This document shows positions 11,861-61,692 of a stretch of 62,333 nucleotides of DNA, one piece after another. The position numbers were made by a program, and so were the translations under genes. Source of the stretch: Candidatus Spyradenecus sp. (lineage in GTDB: Bacteria > Verrucomicrobiota > Kiritimatiellia > RFP12 > DVOR01); the NCBI GenBank assembly GCA_051884775.1, contig JBJEVY010000075.1, positions 1 through 62,333 of the forward strand, read 5' to 3'. The notes beneath the pieces are model-generated. The model saw only the letters and a list, made by a program, of their open reading frames with translations. It was not told the origin of the DNA and made no database searches. Numbering within the stretch: the stretch's first letter is position 1; each line of letters begins with the position of its first letter.

Positions 11861-12250
11861 TTGTGGTTGCTAACCTGCGTCCATTTCAGCGTGACAAGGC
11901 CTCCACAACCCTTTGTGCCCGCTGTGGTTGCTCATCCTGCGTGCGTTTCGGCGTGCTCTGTGCGTCTTTGTGGTTGCTAACCTGCGCGTATTTCGGCGTG
12001 CTCGGCGTGCGTTCCTTTGTGTTTCTTTGTGTTCTTTGTGGTTAAATCCTGCGTGTGTTTCGGCGTGACAAGGCCTCCACAACCCTTTGTGTTTCTTTGT
12101 GTTCTTTGTGGTTAAATCCTGCGTGCGTTTCGGCGTGACAAGGCCTCCACAACCCTTTGTGTTTCTTTGTGTTCTTTGTGGTTAATATCCTGCGTCTATT
12201 TCGGCGTGCTCGGCGTGCTCTGTGCGTCTTTGTGGTTGCTAACCTGCGCT
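11861..12250 (+). repeat. Family-A tandem array, about 70-bp unit
   Basis: Three near-identical 70-bp units start at 12015, 12085 and 12155 (ctttgtgtttctttgtgttctttgtggttaaatcctgcgtgYgtttcggcgtgacaaggcctccacaacc), flanked by degenerate units. Confidence 0.9.
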
Positions 12251-16212: not shown

Positions 16213-17730
16213 TCACCTTTCGGCAAGGGTTAATGGGGTGTGGCCCTGACCGAAGTCGGGCCATTGGAGGAGCGTGTTGGGGTAGACCCGGCGCAGGTGC
16301 GCCAAGCGCTCGGCGCGGTCGGGCGCGGGGGCCAAGTCGGGAAAGTGAAGGGCATAGGTGTAGCCGGCCCAAGCGGCGAGCTTCGGCCCCTCGGCAGCGG
16401 GCGCAGCGCAGGGCGGGGAGAAGGGCCCCATCTCCAAGCCGCGGGGAACCTCAAGCCCGGCCTCGACCGCGAGATAGGTCTCCTGCGTCCAGACCTGGCG
16501 TTCGCCGCGCGCGGCGGCCCAGGTGCGCAGTTGCAGCCCCACGCGGCGCAGGGCCGCAAGGTCGCTCTCGGGCTTGAGGCGGATCCAAAAGCGATCTTGC
16601 GGCAGGGCCACCCAATCCTGAATGAGGGGCGAACCCAGGCAGGTGAGCGCAAGGGCGGCCGGAAGCATCACCTTGGCAAGCGCCAAGCGAAGCGAATCGA
16701 AGGGCAAGCGCGTGAAGGCAAAGGCCACCACCATCGCCAAAGGCAGGGTGGCGGGCACCTGATAATCCTCGTAGGGCACCGGCGCGCAGAGGTGCGCCAG
16801 CCCCAACGCCGCCGCGCACCAGAGCCACAGATTGGCCAGATGCTCGCGCTCGGAGGTTGCCCGCTTCAACGCCGGGCGCGCGGTCACCTGCAGCCACCCC
16901 AGCAAAATCATCCAAAAGGCGAGCAGCGGATTGAAGCGCAGCCACCGCGCCACGCACCCCGCACGCCCCAAGAGCCCCATCGGCTCGCGGGCGCTGTGGA
17001 AGCGAATCGCAGCCAGCAGCTCGGCCGGCCAGCCGATGAGTTCAGGCCCAAAGGCCGCCACCAGCCCAGCCGCCGCACCGGCACCAAACCAGAGCCACGC
17101 CCGGCGGCCCATCTGCGCGCGATGCCACCACAGCCACGCCGTCACCGCCGGCAAGAGCACGCCCATCGACAGGCGAATATCGGCCAGCAGGGCCAGAAGC
17201 GCACCGGCGGCCAACGCGCAGAGGGGGTCGAGCCCCGACCCATCGCGCCGCAACCCGGTGAGCAGCCGCAGCGCCCCGGCGATCCCCAGCGTGCAGAGCG
17301 CGTAGGTCTTGGGGATGACCGTGAAGTAGCCATACCACACATTCAGCCCCAGCAGGCACCAGAGCGTCACACGCGCAGCCCACCGTTCATCCAACCGCCG
17401 GCACCCGGAGGTGACGCAGCCATCGGCCAGAAAGAGCGCCGCCAGACCAAAGAGCGCCGTCAAGATTCGCCCGCCAAGCACACCGAGGCCCGACCACGCC
17501 CAGCCGAAGACCGCGTAGAGGAACGGGAAGAGAAGCCCTTGCGTGAAGAAGAAGTCGCGATGGGGCACCTCGCCGGCCATCATGCGCCGGGCCGCGTAGA
17601 GCCCCCACCCCTCATCTTGGTTGAGCGGCCCGAACCACACATTGAGCACGAGCATCACCACCGTCAGCCCCAGCGCGGCAAGGGCCCACCGCCGAAGCGG
17701 ATTTTGACCCGCCCCGGGTGGTGTTTTCAA
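16213..17730 (-). CDS. GT-C fold glycosyltransferase (family 39/83-like, PMT/ArnT type)
   Basis: First-loop acidic motif GPLNQDEGWGLYAARR and many TM helices. The stop lies 4 nt before the lnt start. The start is uncertain: TTG 17730, or ATG 18159 if the 198-bp repeats are translated. Confidence 0.65.
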   Translation of the reverse strand: MKTPPGAGQNPLRRWALAALGLTVVMLVLNVWFGPLNQDEGWGLYAARRMMAGEVPHRDFFFTQGLLFPFLYAVFGWAWSGLGVLGGRILTALFGLAALFLADGCVTSGCRRLDERWAARVTLWCLLGLNVWYGYFTVIPKTYALCTLGIAGALRLLTGLRRDGSGLDPLCALAAGALLALLADIRLSMGVLLPAVTAWLWWHRAQMGRRAWLWFGAGAAAGLVAAFGPELIGWPAELLAAIRFHSAREPMGLLGRAGCVARWLRFNPLLAFWMILLGWLQVTARPALKRATSEREHLANLWLWCAAALGLAHLCAPVPYEDYQVPATLPLAMVVAFAFTRLPFDSLRLALAKVMLPAALALTCLGSPLIQDWVALPQDRFWIRLKPESDLAALRRVGLQLRTWAAARGERQVWTQETYLAVEAGLEVPRGLEMGPFSPPCAAPAAEGPKLAAWAGYTYALHFPDLAPAPDRAERLAHLRRVYPNTLLQWPDFGQGHTPLTLAER

Positions 17731-18125
17731 TAGACGAGAGGCGATAGACGAGGAGGCTGTCGCCGGAGGTGGAGCGTCCGTCCGATGGACCGCCAGTTCC
17801 TCCGTCGCGGAACGCGCACTGTCGACTGTCGACTGTTGACTGTCGACTGGGCGCGCAGCGCCCCGCCCCGGGTTGACCTCGCATCCGCCCCGGGTTCGAG
17901 GTCGATCCGCCCCGGGTGAAGTTTTCGATAGGCAAGAGGCGGTAGGCGAGGAGGCTGTCGCCGGAGGTGGAGCATCCGTCCGATGGACCGCCAGTTCCTC
18001 CGTCGCGGAACGCGCACTGTCGACTGTCGACTGTTGACTGTCGACTGGGCGCGCATCGCCCCGCCCCGGGTTGACCTCGCATCCGCCCCGGGTTGGGGTC
18101 GGACTCGGGGCGGGTGCGTTTTCGG
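17711..18125. repeat. 198-bp tandem duplication (about 2.1 copies) upstream of, or in the 5' end of, the GT-C gene
   Basis: Unit 1 is 17711-17908 and unit 2 is 17909-18106, with a partial third. Each unit carries a GTCGACT heptad array (17819-17849, 18017-18047), a CCGTCGCGGAACGCGC core and three 22-bp-phased CCGCCCCGGGTT motifs. Confidence 0.9.
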
Positions 18126-21857: not shown

Positions 21858-21935
21858 TATCGAAGCAGGTACATGAAGCGAAGCACATAGCCATTAAGAG
21901 TTTTGCTGTGGCCTGCTCCGCCAGGCCACCCGCAC

Positions 21936-22072
21936 GCGCCAAAGGCGCACCTCACGGCCCGAAGGGCCACCCTCACGCGCCGAAGGCGCACCTCACGGCC
22001 CGAAGGGCCACCCTCACGCGCCGAAGGCGCACCTCACGGCCCGAAGGGCCACCCTCACGCGCCGAAGGCACC
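21936..22072 (+). repeat. 41-bp tandem repeat (3.3 copies) of paired GAA-triloop hairpins
   Basis: The unit gcgccgaaggcgcacctcacggcccgaagggccaccctcac starts at 21936, 21977, 22018 and 22059. Confidence 0.9.
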
Positions 22073-29132: not shown

Positions 29133-29142
29133 CCCCCCCCCC
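29133..29142 (-). promoter_or_regulatory. Homopolymeric C10 (G10 on the coding strand) tract in the upstream region of the giant gene
   Basis: tacccccccccc-gtgcaa. On the minus strand, TTGCAC (candidate -35, 29143-29148) is followed directly by G10. It lies about 80 nt upstream of the ATG at 29052. Confidence 0.45.
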
Positions 29143-35416: not shown

Positions 35417-35535
35417 GTTAGCGGTTAGCTGTTAGCTGTTAGCGGTTAGCTGTTAGCGGATAGCTGTTAGCGGATAGCTGTTAGCAGATAGCAGATAGCC
35501 GTTAGCGGATAGCTGTTGGCGGATAGCAGTTAGCG
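35417..35535 (+). repeat. 17 uninterrupted heptads (GTTAGCG/GTTAGCT/GATAGCT) filling the whole intergenic spacer
   Basis: gttagcg gttagct gttagct gttagcg gttagct gttagcg gatagct gttagcg gatagct gttagca gatagca gatagcc gttagcg gatagct gttggcg gatagca gttagcg, with no indel over 119 nt. Confidence 0.95.
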
Positions 35536-36802: not shown

Positions 36803-37105
36803 AAGGGGCGCTGCGCGCCCCGTGAACGGTGAACGGTGAACGGTGAACGGTGAACGGTGAGAGGTGAGAGGTGAACGGTGAGGTGCTCGCTACGCTCGCG
36901 TGAGGTGCCGTTGCGCGGCGTGAGGGTGGCGGCTATGCCGCCGTGAGGGGCGGCCTGGCGGGCCGTTGGGTGCGCCCCAGCGCCCCCGGATTTCCCGGAT
37001 TTTCCGGACTTTCCGGACTTTCCGGGTCCCTGCGTGCCTTCCCCACCCTGCGCAACCTTTACCCTTTTTGACATAGCTCCTTCGCTTCGCTCGGACTTGT
37101 GCTTC
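36803..37105 (+). repeat. Composite intergenic cassette, copy 2
   Basis: Nine heptads at 36822-36885 (GTGAACG x5, GTGAGAG x2 ...). 36877-36961 is near-identical to 11687-11771. A 9-nt repeat ccggayttt x5 lies at 36986-37029. 37061-37105 matches 11826-11870. A short family-A remnant spans 37095-37150. Confidence 0.85.
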
Positions 37106-40287: not shown

Positions 40288-41481
40288 TTAGCTCAAAAGT
40301 TCCACCTTCGGCACGCGGAAGGGCACCCACTTGACCACCGCGTCATCCGAGAGCGGCGTCAAGCTGCGCGCGGCCAAGTCGTTGAAGGTGGCCACGCGCA
40401 GCGCGGCATCCACCTCCACGCACTGGCTCTCATACGCCTTCCCGGCGCGTGCCGCCAAAATCTGCCCGGCAAAGTCACGATACGCCGCGGCCAACGCGGC
40501 AATGTAAGCGGCATCCTCGCCATAGGGCTCGCCAAAGCGCGTGGGGCTCTGCGTCGGCACCGGCGCGCCCTCGACCACATGCTCCACGCACTCGCCCGCC
40601 GCCGAGATAAAGCGCCAACGGTTCCCCGTCCCCTGCTGCCAATAGACGCTTCCCTTGTCGCCATAAATCGCCAGCTCCAGGCCATTCGCCTCGCCCAACG
40701 CAATCTGGCTCACCGCCACCATCCCCATCGCGCCATTCTCAAAGCGCAGCAGCACCGTGGCATCGTCATCCAACAGCCGCCCGGCCACCGCAGGGTGACC
40801 CGCCGCGCACAACGCCGCCAACTCCACCCCGCTCGCCCACTCTGCCACCAACGCGCACGAGCCGGCCAAGTCGTAAATTGCCCCCGCCGCCCCGCACCGC
40901 CGCGGATCCACCCGCCACAGCGCCGAACGGTTCCCAGCCGTCTCCAACCGCACCCCCATCCACCCGTGATAGAAGCGCGTATCGACCCGCCGCACATTCC
41001 CAATCTCCCCCGCCGCCACACACGCCCGCAGCGCCTGCAACGCCGGATAGAAGGGGAAGACATAGGCCGTGGCGTAAATCTCCGGACTCATCAACGTCCG
41101 CCGCTTCAGATTCTGCGCCTCATCCATATTGCAGCTCATCGGCTTCTCGGAAAAGACCGGGAAGCCTGCGTCAAAGGCCGCCATTGTCACTGGATAATGC
41201 ATATTGTTCGGCGCCACCACCGTGATGAAGTCCAGCCGATCCGGCCCCTCCACCTTCGACTCCCGCCGGAACATATCACGATAGACCCCGTAGACCCGAT
41301 GCGGATCCACGCCCAACCGCTTCCCCGTCTCAAACGACCGCTGCCGCGTTGACCCAAACGCTCCGCCTACCAATTCCACACACCCACTCGCCTCAATAGC
41401 CGCCCGGTGAATGTGCCCCATAAAGGACTCATTCCCGCCGCCGACCATCGCGACCTTCAACTTTGCCTCTTGCTTCGTCAT
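40288..41481 (-). CDS. Gfo/Idh/MocA family oxidoreductase
   Basis: Rossmann KVAMVGGG and VFSEKPMS motif. The ATG at 41481 has a GAGGTG SD. Confidence 0.8.
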   Translation of the reverse strand: MTKQEAKLKVAMVGGGNESFMGHIHRAAIEASGCVELVGGAFGSTRQRSFETGKRLGVDPHRVYGVYRDMFRRESKVEGPDRLDFITVVAPNNMHYPVTMAAFDAGFPVFSEKPMSCNMDEAQNLKRRTLMSPEIYATAYVFPFYPALQALRACVAAGEIGNVRRVDTRFYHGWMGVRLETAGNRSALWRVDPRRCGAAGAIYDLAGSCALVAEWASGVELAALCAAGHPAVAGRLLDDDATVLLRFENGAMGMVAVSQIALGEANGLELAIYGDKGSVYWQQGTGNRWRFISAAGECVEHVVEGAPVPTQSPTRFGEPYGEDAAYIAALAAAYRDFAGQILAARAGKAYESQCVEVDAALRVATFNDLAARSLTPLSDDAVVKWVPFRVPKVELLS

Positions 41482-41537
41482 ACTCACCTCAAGGCTCCTG
41501 CCTACTCATATAGCCAACACTCATCAATTCATTGCAT

Positions 41538-41566
41538 ATATTACCGCATCAATGGCAAAAAGGCAA
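41538..41566 (-). promoter_or_regulatory. Candidate sigma70-type promoter (TTGCCT-17 nt-TAATAT) for the oxidoreductase/Nif3 operon
   Basis: -35 at 41561-41566 and -10 at 41538-41543 (minus strand), directly downstream of heptad array 41576-41629. Confidence 0.45.
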
Positions 41567-41575
41567 CTCCCTGAA

Positions 41576-41629
41576 GCGACAGCGGACAGCCGACAGCAGA
41601 CAGCGGACAGCGGACAGTGGACAGCAGAC
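41576..41629 (+). repeat. Heptad array, 7.5 units of NNGACAG
   Basis: gcgacag cggacag ccgacag cagacag cggacag cggacag tggacag cagac. Confidence 0.9.
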
Positions 41630-41630
41630 T

Positions 41631-41666
41631 GCCAAAACAAACGCGGACCGGTTCACCCGGCCCGCG
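41631..41666 (-). terminator. Rho-independent terminator of the PEP-CTERM gene
   Basis: Minus strand reads CGCGGGCCGGGTGAACCGGTCCGCG followed by TTTGTTTT. Confidence 0.7.
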
Positions 41667-41693
41667 CTCGCGTAAGGATCTATCCGCCAATCG

Positions 41694-42272
41694 TTAAGCC
41701 CGGCGGCGCAACGCCAACCCAGCCACGCCCAGCGCCAACAGCGCCAATGCCGTCGGCTCAGGCACCGTTGTGTGGTTGACCGTATCCTTGGCCCATTCGA
41801 GCGTTGTACCCGTAAGGTCGACGGTTTTATCTGCCTCAAGCCCCCACACCGTCAGCAAGGCATAACCAGCACTCGAACTCCCCAAGTTCCACTTGTTGAA
41901 GAGAACGAAGGTGACCGTATCGCCCGTCAAATCGAAGGTCGTCGAGAAATCCGCGAGCGTGACCGGCGCATCTGCTCCCAGATCCCCATAGGTGTTGGAA
42001 TCCTTCACATTCACCTGCGCCAGTGCGCCAAGCGAGGAATCCAACGTCACCGTCGTGTTACCACTATCAACCGAAATCGCAGAATTCAGCGTCTCGCGCG
42101 TCAAGGAGCTACCATCACCGGCAACAAGAAACAGGCCGCAGTATCCCGGCCCATACCCCGGAGTGCCGCTGTTGTTCGGACCACCGAGCGTCAAGTTACT
42201 CCATGTAATTGTAATTGCCTGGAGCGAAAGGGTTGCACACGCAACCGCAAACAGCAAAACAAGCTTCTTCAT
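41694..42272 (-). CDS. PEP-CTERM sorting-signal protein (secreted/surface)
   Basis: Signal peptide MKKLVLLFAVACATLSLQA and C-terminal VPEPTALALLALGVAGLALRRRA. GAGAGG SD lies 7 nt before the ATG. Confidence 0.85.
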   Translation of the reverse strand: MKKLVLLFAVACATLSLQAITITWSNLTLGGPNNSGTPGYGPGYCGLFLVAGDGSSLTRETLNSAISVDSGNTTVTLDSSLGALAQVNVKDSNTYGDLGADAPVTLADFSTTFDLTGDTVTFVLFNKWNLGSSSAGYALLTVWGLEADKTVDLTGTTLEWAKDTVNHTTVPEPTALALLALGVAGLALRRRA

Positions 42273-42346
42273 CGCATGTCCTCTCTTCAAGATGAAAGAG
42301 CTTCTGACGACCGCCGCCAAGAGAACTCCTCAAAAAGAACGCCACT

Positions 42347-42375
42347 AGTATACATCCCCCCCCCCATCAAGTCAA
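42347..42375 (-). promoter_or_regulatory. sigma70-type promoter TTGACT-17 nt-TATACT whose spacer contains a G10 (C10 on plus strand) tract
   Basis: -35 at 42370-42375 and -10 at 42347-42352. The spacer is tgat + G10 (42356-42365) + atg = 17 nt. Confidence 0.6.
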
Positions 42376-42405
42376 GCCCCATATTTTTCCTTGTTTGCCC
42401 CACGA

Positions 42406-42493
42406 GCCAACCTCGGGCGGGTGCGCGGCCAACCTCGGGCGGGTGCGTGGCCAACCTCGGGCGGGTGCGCGGCCAACCTCGGGCGGGTGCGTG
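42406..42493 (+). repeat. 22-bp tandem repeat x4 (GCCAACCTCGGGCGGGTGCGYG)
   Basis: Units start at 42406, 42428, 42450 and 42472. On the minus strand they lie about 30-120 nt upstream of the PEP-CTERM -35. Confidence 0.9.
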
Positions 42494-42646
42494 GCCATTG
42501 GAGGGGCCGGGGGTGCCGGGCGGGTTTTCTCGGGGTGCGGGGGCGTTGCCCCCCGCGCAGGTGCGTGCCGGGGGTTTAGGGGCAGGGCCCCCAACGGCCT
42601 GGGCGGCGAGGCGCGTAAGCGCATCGCCGCGCGGTGTGCTGGCGAG

Positions 42647-42691
42647 GAGGTGAACGGTGAACAGTGAACGGAGAACGGTAAACAGCGGAGG
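42647..42691 (+). repeat. Degenerate heptad array (GTGAACG/GTGAACA/GAGAACG)
   Basis: gaggtgaacggtgaacagtgaacggagaacggtaaacagcggagg. Confidence 0.7.
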
Positions 42692-42715
42692 TGCCCAACG
42701 GGCGCCTCCGCGCGG

Positions 42716-43708
42716 TTAGCGCTGGGCGCTGGCGAGCCAATGGGGCATCGGGGGCGGAATGGGGGCGCAGGAGAAGTGGGAGAGGCCAGCCTGCTGCATC
42801 CAGCCCTCGAGCTCCTGGGCGGAGAAGACCCAGCCGTGGTCGGTGGTCAGGGCCATATTCAGGGCGAAGAGGGCGGAGAAGGGAGGCGTGGTGTGGTCGG
42901 GGCCAGTCATCATATCGAGCACATAGAGGCGGCCGCCGGGACGGAGGGCGGCGGCGGCGCGGCGGAGGATATCGACAATCTGCTCGGGGGATTCCTGATG
43001 GAGGCAACCGAAGAGGGTGACCACATCATAGGCGGCTGCGGGGTAAGTATCCTGATGGTAGTCGCCGGCGTGGCAGGTAATCCGATCGGCGCAAGGGGCG
43101 GTGATTTCGCGGGCGACCTCGGCGATGGCGGGCAGGTCGTAGGTATCGACCGTGCAGGTAGGGTCGGCTTGAGCCATCAGCAGGGCGTAGGTGCCCGGGC
43201 CGCCGGCGAGATCGAGAATCCGCGCGCCGGCAGGCAGCGCGAGGGCGGGGATGACAGCGCGGCCGATGCCCAGGGCGCGCCCGTGCATCGAGAGGGCGAA
43301 GGTGCGGGTGCGCTCGCGGTCGGAGCCCAGATGGAGGGCGGGAGCCTCGACAGGGCGACCGGTACGGGCGAGGGTGGCCAGGCGGCCCCAGGCGGGGTAG
43401 ACATCGCGGTTATAGGCGATCGCGCGGGTGAGATCGTGCGGAGCGCCGCGGACGAGACTGGCGGCGGAGGCCTCGGTCAGCGCAAAACGATCGCCAGACT
43501 TCGTGAGCAGGCCCACCGCCACCGCGCCATTGAGGAGGAGTTCCAGACCCCGCGGGTCGGCGCCGAGCTCGGCGGCGAGGGCGGGGGCGGTGGGGTCGGC
43601 CGCGCGGGAGAGGGCGGTAAAGAGGTCGAGCTCCAGGGCGGCGAAGAGGACGGCCGAGCCGTAGTAGGCGCTGGCGAGAGAGACGATTTCGGGGAGTTGC
43701 AGGGGCAT
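42716..43708 (-). CDS. SAM-dependent O-methyltransferase (family 2 type)
   Basis: SAM-binding ILDLAGGPGTYA and an N-terminal helical dimerisation-like segment; 330 aa. Confidence 0.75.
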   Translation of the reverse strand: MPLQLPEIVSLASAYYGSAVLFAALELDLFTALSRAADPTAPALAAELGADPRGLELLLNGAVAVGLLTKSGDRFALTEASAASLVRGAPHDLTRAIAYNRDVYPAWGRLATLARTGRPVEAPALHLGSDRERTRTFALSMHGRALGIGRAVIPALALPAGARILDLAGGPGTYALLMAQADPTCTVDTYDLPAIAEVAREITAPCADRITCHAGDYHQDTYPAAAYDVVTLFGCLHQESPEQIVDILRRAAAALRPGGRLYVLDMMTGPDHTTPPFSALFALNMALTTDHGWVFSAQELEGWMQQAGLSHFSCAPIPPPMPHWLASAQR

Positions 43709-58734: not shown

Positions 58735-58809
58735 GAGTGAACCGTGAGAGGTGAACGATGAGAGGTGAACGATGAGAGGTGAACGATGAGAGGTGAACGG
58801 TGAACGGTC
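58735..58809 (+). repeat. Heptad array with 14-nt super-period (AGGTGAACGATGAG x3, then GTGAACG x2)
   Basis: gagtgaaccgtgagaggtgaacgatgagaggtgaacgatgagaggtgaacgatgagaggtgaacggtgaacggtcg. Confidence 0.9.
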
Positions 58810-61521: not shown

Positions 61522-61612
61522 TGGCGGAGAGGGTGGGATTTGAACCCACGGTACCCATAAAGAGTACACAAGATTTCCAGTCTTGCGCCTTCGACCACTC
61601 GGCCACCTCTCC
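61522..61612 (-). tRNA. tRNA-Ser (anticodon GGA), long variable arm, CCA encoded
   Basis: Minus strand reads ggagaggtggccgagtggtcgaaggcgcaagactggaaatcttgtgtactctttatgggtaccgtgggttcaaatcccaccctctccgcca. The anticodon loop is CTGGAAA. Confidence 0.9.
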
Positions 61613-61628
61613 GTAAAGAAGTGCGCAC

Positions 61629-61637
61629 ATTATGGCA
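61629..61637 (-). promoter_or_regulatory. Candidate extended -10 (TGCCATAAT) for tRNA-Ser
   Basis: 16 nt upstream of the mature tRNA 5' end. Confidence 0.45.
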
Positions 61638-61692
61638 CAACCCTCCCCCAAAAAGCAAGCACTTTTTGCGCACGCCTGCGAAATACACGCTG

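Follow-up and report, generated by a model that had tools for sequence, protein, structure and literature searches.

A run of ten G residues (G10) lies in the 17-nt spacer of a sigma-70-like promoter upstream of a gene for a small exported PEP-CTERM protein, in a 62,333-nt stretch of DNA from Candidatus Spyradenecus sp. (hereafter the window). Homology between the orthologous loci starts at the -35 hexamer of this promoter, the length of the run differs among close relatives, and runs of the same kind recur upstream of other PEP-CTERM genes and in other genomes of the lineage. Judging from these sequence comparisons, the G10 tract is probably a phase variation element of the porA and tp0126 type, in which slipped-strand mispairing changes the length of a promoter spacer.

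The promoter and its G10 tract

On the minus strand, positions 42375 to 42347 read TTGACT-tgat-G10-atg-TATACT, with a spacer of 17 nt between the two hexamers. The same layout, including the exact 17-nt spacing, had been given in a preliminary description of this DNA and was confirmed here. The elements of the core promoter are the following.

42370..42375, minus strand: -35 hexamer TTGACT, from the sequence and a consensus scan; invariant in all orthologous contigs that reach the -35
42353..42369, minus strand: 17-nt spacer tgat-G10-atg, with tgat at 42369-42366 and atg at 42355-42353
42356..42365, minus strand: G10 homopolymer (C10 on the plus strand), the proposed slippage tract, from a homopolymer scan
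42347..42352, minus strand: -10 hexamer TATACT; unchanged in every orthologue, also in contigs whose start is inside the tract
Anchor sequences flanking the tract: TTGACTTGAT and TGTATACTAG

A consensus scan of positions 41000-43500 returned the TTGACT/TATACT pair as the sole sigma-70-like site, with 10 of 12 positions matched, which agrees with the earlier statement that both hexamers are near consensus. Across the whole 62 kb, three sites with at least 10 of 12 matches were observed, compared with 0.55 expected from Markov simulations. The G+C content of the window is 65.6%, and runs of 6-9 nt are mildly depleted in it (30 observed, 39 expected under a second-order Markov model). Under a model of that order, 0.14 runs of 10 nt or more were expected, with a probability of about 0.02 of finding at least two. 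Only two homopolymers longer than 8 nt are present, the G10 at 42356-42365 and a C10 at 29133-29142. These had been described as the two longest homopolymers of the window, each preceding a gene for an exported protein, and both statements hold: the first precedes the PEP-CTERM gene, and the second a gene for a 2300-aa protein with a signal-peptide-like N-terminus.

A sigma-70-like promoter, aaagtgcTTGCTT-18-CATAAT, is also found at 61613-61672 (minus strand), upstream of a tRNA-Ser gene at 61522-61612, and its spacer includes G5AG3. Its arrangement, TTGCTT-18-CATAAT, is similar to that of the TTGACT/TATACT pair. The aaagtgcTTG context of the tRNA-Ser promoter recurs in other MAGs, in the PEP-CTERM promoters of group C (L017, L020, L027 and L030). 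None of the other candidate promoters in the window has a spacer rich in G, and a general preference for G-rich spacers in the promoters of this genome was therefore unsupported.

Several other repeats were observed in the window. A 22-nt unit, GCCAACCTCGGGCGGGTGCGCG, is present in 4.2 copies at 42406-42497, with its start 31 nt upstream of the -35 hexamer; none of the orthologous loci has it, and it thus lies outside the conserved promoter unit. Tandemly repeated heptamers (GTGAACG, ACTGTCG, CAGCGGA and GTTAGCG, in up to 17 copies) fill most of the intergenic regions, for example at 35417-35535, 36822-36881, 41578-41629, 42649-42683 and 58737-58808, and also occur in the upstream region of the orthologous contig L067. 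They often stand right behind gene ends or hairpins, and call to mind the short tandemly repeated heptamers known from cyanobacteria. Larger non-coding tandem repeats are located at 12014-12208 (70 nt, 2.8 copies), 17709-18101 (198 nt, 2.0 copies) and 21924-22069 (41 nt, 3.6 copies).

The PEP-CTERM gene and its predicted transcription unit

The gene downstream of the G10 tract (42272-41694) is the window's sole PEP-CTERM ORF, and its features are listed below.

41694..42272, minus strand: CDS of a 192-aa exported PEP-CTERM protein (ATG at 42272), from ORF and Pfam analysis; signal peptide at residues 1-19, then a beta-sandwich domain, and the PEP-CTERM region at residues 169-191 (41700-41768)
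42273..42340, minus strand: predicted 5' UTR of about 68 nt, read from the sequence; conserved among orthologues
42284-42279, minus strand: Shine-Dalgarno sequence AGAGGA, ahead of the ATG at 42272
42347-42345 and 42332-42330, minus strand: in-frame stop codons TAG and TGA, between the tract and the ATG
41634..41659, minus strand: terminator-like hairpin with a T-rich tail, 35 nt past the stop codon; consensus match only
42685..42711, minus strand: GC-rich hairpin GCGGAGGCGCCC-gtt-GGGCACCTCCGC, right after the stop codon of the upstream O-methyltransferase gene; read from the sequence

The protein begins with a typical signal peptide, MKKLVLLFAVACATLSLQA, and ends in VPEPTALALLALGVAGLALRRRA, which comprises the PEP motif, a hydrophobic helix and a basic cluster. 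The match to the Pfam PEP-CTERM family PF07589 has an E-value of 7.6e-7 and 29.4 bits, against a cutoff of 20.7. An AlphaFold2 model (pLDDT 85.9) is mostly beta; a fold search with this model against the PDB returned no match with an E-value below 1e-3, and an exact-protein look-up with the window protein returned no record. With a signal peptide, a beta-sandwich and a PEP-CTERM anchor, the product of the controlled gene is predicted to be exposed at the cell surface.

Transcription from the TTGACT/TATACT promoter is predicted to start near 42340, and the tract lies 84-93 nt upstream of the ATG, with 83 nt between the two. The tract is non-coding, because in-frame stops separate it from the ATG, and phase variation of the translational kind, by changes of the coding frame, is thereby ruled out. 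As the tract is also upstream of the predicted start, any effect it has would have to be exerted at the DNA level. An RNA-level element was considered and rejected: an Rfam search of 41500-42800 returned no family, and the predicted fold of the 5' UTR is no better than that of shuffled sequences (z = 0.76).

The gene appears to be monocistronic and to have its own promoter. The hairpin at 42685-42711, which was not called by the terminator scan because of its weak T run, probably insulates it from transcription reading through from the O-methyltransferase gene.

Homology between orthologous loci starts at the -35 hexamer

A total of 259 homologues of the protein was detected, nearly all with PF07589. 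The closest, 67-87% identical, came from gut metagenomes, while more distant ones belong to named Kiritimatiellae. Among GTDB-representative MAGs, those encoding relatives carry the labels Kiritimatiellae, Lentisphaeraceae or Candidatus Spyradenecus, which all belong to the PVC group. No confirmed hits came from scanning GTDB genomes with a single protein, while alignment-based rescans did find relatives; when JGI metagenome contigs were scanned with a DNA pattern of the promoter in which the gap could vary, there were no hits. As a set of close orthologues, 21 gut-metagenome contigs were fetched, and the window was compared by blastn with 19 orthologous contigs (L001-L014 and L067-L071).

In this comparison the homology to the window starts at 42376/42377, one or two nucleotides 5' of the -35 hexamer, and stops at the stop codon (41692-41694). 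The upstream DNA and the neighbouring genes of the orthologues are unrelated to those of the window, and synteny with the window's neighbouring genes was found in none of the orthologous loci. Such a sharp boundary is a phylogenetic footprint, which places the 5' edge of the functional unit at TTGACT. Within the unit, TTGACT, the tgat linker and TATACT show no changes across the orthologues, and this conservation argues that the two hexamers belong to a functional promoter.

An explanation in which TTGACT/TATACT is not the functional promoter was weighed against this. Transcription could start elsewhere, by read-through from the methyltransferase gene or from a promoter for an alternative sigma factor, and the tract would then have no effect. 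In favour of this, a consensus scan works by pattern matching only. However, homology starts exactly at the -35, and neither the upstream genes nor the intergenic DNA are related, so that read-through from a conserved upstream gene is impossible; in addition, a hairpin follows the upstream gene, and the tRNA-Ser gene carries the similar TTGCTT-18-CATAAT arrangement. A further argument comes from L036, where a different PEP-CTERM gene has only the 47-nt promoter block at 42380-42334 (94% identity) and the C-terminal anchor in common with the window. We therefore regard this explanation as highly improbable.

The unit of promoter, 5' UTR and CDS is flanked by different genes in different lineages. 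The boundaries of the unit and the block in L036 suggest that the promoter and its tract may form a cassette that can move between genes or be exchanged among them.

Variation in the core promoter lies in the tract

Among the orthologues, all variation within the core promoter falls in the tract. The following alleles were found.

G10, spacer 17 nt: window, L009, L011, L014, L068, L071
G9, spacer 16 nt: L069 (flanks as in L068 and L071)
G8, spacer 15 nt: L008
G9 with the adjacent A lost, spacer 15 nt: L067
G3TG7, spacer 18 nt: L010 and L012 (two independent assemblies)
G9A, spacer 17 nt: L001-L004
G6AG3, spacer 17 nt: L007

Six independent changes have occurred in the 10-13 nt of the tract, compared with none in the 16 nt of the hexamers and linker. 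In two close pairs, L007/L008 (96% identity) and L009/L010 (99.4%), the sole indel in about 360 aligned nucleotides is in the tract. Some of these alleles have to be read with care: singleton length variants from low-coverage contigs, such as L008 at 5.6x, could be consensus errors, and G3TG7 is not a simple slippage product. The 17-nt spacer is kept in 8 of 12 distinct contigs or alleles, in two cases through substitutions that interrupt the run (G9A and G6AG3), a retention that would equally fit a constitutive promoter under purifying selection whose tract is decaying. L009, L011 and L014 are three independent samples of one strain-level lineage, and all carry G10. As most alleles are at 17 nt and these three samples agree, the presumed ON length dominates in the sampled populations.

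Four of eight Logan contigs (k=31), L005, L006, L013 and L070, end inside or at the tract. Read sets with such breaks are SRR23253252, SRR35641403, SRR23253297 and ERR2241710. A break of the k=31 graph at this point indicates branching or a loss of coverage, which fits heterogeneity among the reads, and contig breaks at poly-G may also reflect a drop in Illumina quality or coverage.

The length differences could also be artefacts of sequencing or assembly, with a real promoter and tract that are stable in vivo and a gene that is expressed constitutively. Several variant alleles were found once each, in short metagenomic contigs of low coverage, poly-G contig breaks are a known weakness of short-read assembly, and the three samples of a single lineage agree on G10. 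Against this, G3TG7 was recovered from two assemblies independent of each other and G10 from at least six, and consensus indel errors in a run of 10 nt are uncommon for Illumina assemblies. Differences in length are also found between curated MAGs of different species, at orthologous promoters (L026/L028/L029 and L027/L030, described below), and the excess of runs upstream of PEP-CTERM genes needs a biological explanation regardless. An artefact is for these reasons quite improbable as the source of the differences.

Poly-G and poly-C promoters of other PEP-CTERM genes

We surveyed 269 kb, made up of the window and the loci L014-L066, which had been fetched through PEP-CTERM matches. These contain 26 G/C runs of at least 8 nt, 18 of which sit 55-140 nt upstream of genes encoding both a signal peptide and a PEP-CTERM region. 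Seen from the side of the genes, 18 of the 65 signal-peptide and PEP-CTERM genes in these loci have such a run, with a length of about 8-11 nt. The runs are usually located between TTGAC(T/G/A) and TAnnnT, starting 0, 2, 4 or 9 nt past the -35 and ending 0-9 nt from the -10 depending on the promoter family, with inferred spacers of 14-19 nt. Across genes, the mode of the run length is exactly 10. Tract promoters were found in at least 7 MAGs, and this architecture recurs among MAGs of gut Kiritimatiellae/Lentisphaeraceae.

The run length differs between orthologous promoters (9, 8 and 10 nt in L026, L028 and L029; 10 and 9 nt in L027 and L030) and between paralogous pairs (10 and 9 nt in L017 and L020; 9 and 12 nt in L046 and L048). 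On the sense strand, 15 of the 18 runs are G and three are C (L015, L032 and L035), and strict specificity of this promoter class for G on the sense strand was rejected on account of these three cases. The poly-C versions lie upstream of PEP-CTERM genes at 1083-1095 in L015, 1354-1366 in L035 and 129-136 in L032, with the layouts TTG-C10 or C8 abutting TATAAT. The run in L015 is located in the loop of a 7-bp inverted repeat (ATAAGTC / GACTTAT).

PEP-CTERM genes with TTGAC-polyG promoters, of the type that is characteristic of the PVC MAGs, were also observed in the contigs L038, L045, L046, L048 and L051, which belong to a bin titled Agathobacter rectalis H07647-L1_cleanbin_000033. This Firmicutes-labelled bin is probably contaminated by, or mislabelled for, a Kiritimatiellae/Lentisphaerae genome.

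The survey bears on another explanation, in which the run is a fixed functional element, such as a spacer sequence that shapes the DNA or a regulator site common to PEP-CTERM genes, and the length differences are occasional neutral or deleterious mutations. The run has been kept over deep divergence and in front of different genes with a mode of exactly 10, 15 of 18 runs have G on the sense strand, and the tRNA-Ser promoter of the window also has a G5AG3 spacer. Most alleles of the window orthologues hold the spacer at 17 nt, twice by substitution and not by a change of length. However, the run is the least conserved segment of the core promoter, with six changes against none in the 16 nt around it, and the other promoter candidates of the window have no G-rich spacer. 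The distance of the run to the -35 and the -10 varies by promoter family and three families use C, which is hard to reconcile with a sequence-specific site. A G10 run is, in addition, intrinsically prone to slippage, whatever else its role. A fixed element is, on balance, rather unlikely.

Taken as a whole, these comparisons bear out the preliminary description in its main points. The proposal of a true promoter element agrees with the abrupt start of orthologue conservation at the -35 and with two invariant hexamers; the tract behaves as the mutational hot spot of the promoter, as length alleles give spacers of 15, 16, 17 and 18 nt among near-identical sequences; and similar tracts, for which it had been suggested that other PEP-CTERM or adhesin genes be checked, do recur upstream of PEP-CTERM genes in related MAGs with lengths that differ between orthologues. 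This comparative signature is that of simple-sequence contingency loci, which lends support to phase variation as the interpretation.

The second tract of the window

The second tract has the same orientation and the same distance to its gene as the main tract.

29133..29142, minus strand: second G10 (C10 on the plus strand), 80 nt upstream of the gene for the 2300-aa exported protein (29052-22150)

The presence of this tract and of an exported-protein gene downstream of it was correctly described before, but its promoter geometry is less clear than that of the main tract. The context reads TTGCAC-G10-taaaagaTGtTAAACT; the hexamers are poorer, with TAAACT at 20 nt and a TGn extended -10. The arrangement would be either a promoter whose spacing is 20 nt or one of the extended -10 type, in which the run lies over the -35 region, and the tract may belong to the same class as the one at 42356-42365. 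The 2300-aa protein has a signal-peptide-like N-terminus and no Pfam domain. A homologue search with its N-terminal 513 aa found none at an E-value of 1e-10 or below, and because the N-terminus has no detected homologues, the second tract could not be compared across relatives.

Discussion

We prefer to read the G10 run as a simple-sequence tract, hypermutable and situated in the spacer of a sigma-70-type promoter, which would drive a monocistronic gene for a small, exported and exosortase-sorted (PEP-CTERM) surface protein. Slipped-strand mispairing at replication would add or remove G residues, and the spacing between the -35 and the -10 would shift around the 17-nt optimum. Lineages within one population could then express the protein at high, reduced or negligible levels, in a heritable and reversible manner, and the window would presumably represent the 17-nt allele in the ON state. 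The locus would be one of a family of promoter-tract units on PEP-CTERM genes in gut Kiritimatiellae/Lentisphaeraceae. What the sequences establish is the architecture, the edge of conservation at the -35, the variation in tract length among relatives and the recurrence in other genes and genomes, while promoter activity, the transcription start, the dependence of expression on length, the rate of switching and surface exposure are inferred.

Precedents for such a mechanism exist. According to PMC7864442 and PMC3639595, a poly-G between the -35 and the -10 controls both porA of Neisseria meningitidis and tp0126 of Treponema pallidum, with an optimum of 17 nt, and tpr, opc and fim are related systems. 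The likeness to porA is close, as it also has a G run of about 9-11 nt in a sigma-70 spacer ahead of a gene for an exported or outer-surface protein, with expression graded by spacer length and its optimum at 17 nt (PMC7864442; PMC3639595). The two systems differ in their setting, a porin of a proteobacterial pathogen in one case and a small PEP-CTERM beta-sandwich protein of an uncultured PVC gut commensal in the other, and the present one is described from sequence comparison.

In T. pallidum, tp0126 and the tpr genes (tprE/G/J/F/I/L) form a set of paralogous surface-protein genes, and every gene has a private poly-G of 7-12 nt within or beside its promoter (PMC7864442). The tp0126 tract is between the -35 and the -10 and is optimal at 17-nt spacing, and tract lengths vary within and between isolates (PMC7864442). 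T. pallidum belongs to another phylum and the proteins to another family, and in several tpr genes the tract is located just upstream of the transcription start instead of in the spacer. Variation in T. pallidum was demonstrated by fragment-length analysis and reporters, with E. coli fusions for tp0126 and tprL, whereas the evidence here is comparative.

Tracts of C are found in the promoters of genes for surface structures in N. meningitidis opc, where the poly-C overlaps the -35, and in Bordetella pertussis fim2 and fim3, where it is upstream of the -10. These resemble the TTG-C10 variants in L015 and L035, and possibly the second tract of the window. In opc, fim2 and fim3 the tract affects the -35 or the positioning of an activator and not just the length of the spacer, whereas the G10 of the window is placed cleanly between two good hexamers.

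PEP-CTERM genes have been reported to be enriched near one group of invertons in gut bacteria (PMC11892184). Inverton control is similar to the mechanism proposed here in that it concerns genes with PEP-CTERM sorting domains, the gut habitat and ON/OFF heterogeneity of surface proteins. It differs in that an invertase brings about site-specific inversion, whereas homopolymer slippage is proposed here, and neither inverted repeats nor an invertase play a part at the locus of the window.

To our knowledge, nearly everything established about phase variation by homopolymers in promoters comes from a few pathogens, namely Neisseria, Haemophilus, Bordetella, Treponema and Campylobacter. The switches known from gut commensals are for the most part invertible promoters. 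Searches of the full-text literature found no paper pairing Kiritimatiell* with phase variation, or Kiritimatiell* with PEP-CTERM; in the literature searched, PEP-CTERM and homopolymeric tracts occurred together only in an Akkermansia genome paper, as unrelated remarks. The kind of mechanism is therefore well known, while the lineage, the gene class and the deployment across a whole family appear to be undescribed.

A broader proposal, which we consider evenly balanced between true and false, is that gut Kiritimatiellae/Lentisphaeraceae possess a phasome. It would consist of many small PEP-CTERM beta-sandwich paralogues and at least one giant exported protein, each with a private poly-G/C tract in its promoter spacer, resulting in a stochastic display of proteins in each cell. 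The promoter and its tract would act as a portable cassette, extending from the -35 to the stop codon and relocating between contexts or genes. If the tracts act in the proposed way, metagenome practice would also be affected, as such tracts break assemblies and consensus lengths hide the states of a population.

A phasome of this kind would be the first contingency system based on simple sequences to be described for exosortase substrates, and likewise the first for commensal PVC bacteria. Should the tracts act in the proposed way, a PVC lineage that is abundant in human and animal guts but uncultured would vary a multigene family of exosortase-sorted surface proteins by slippage. This would bear on the evasion of immunity and phages, on adaptation to niches in the gut, and on what PEP-CTERM proteins are for.
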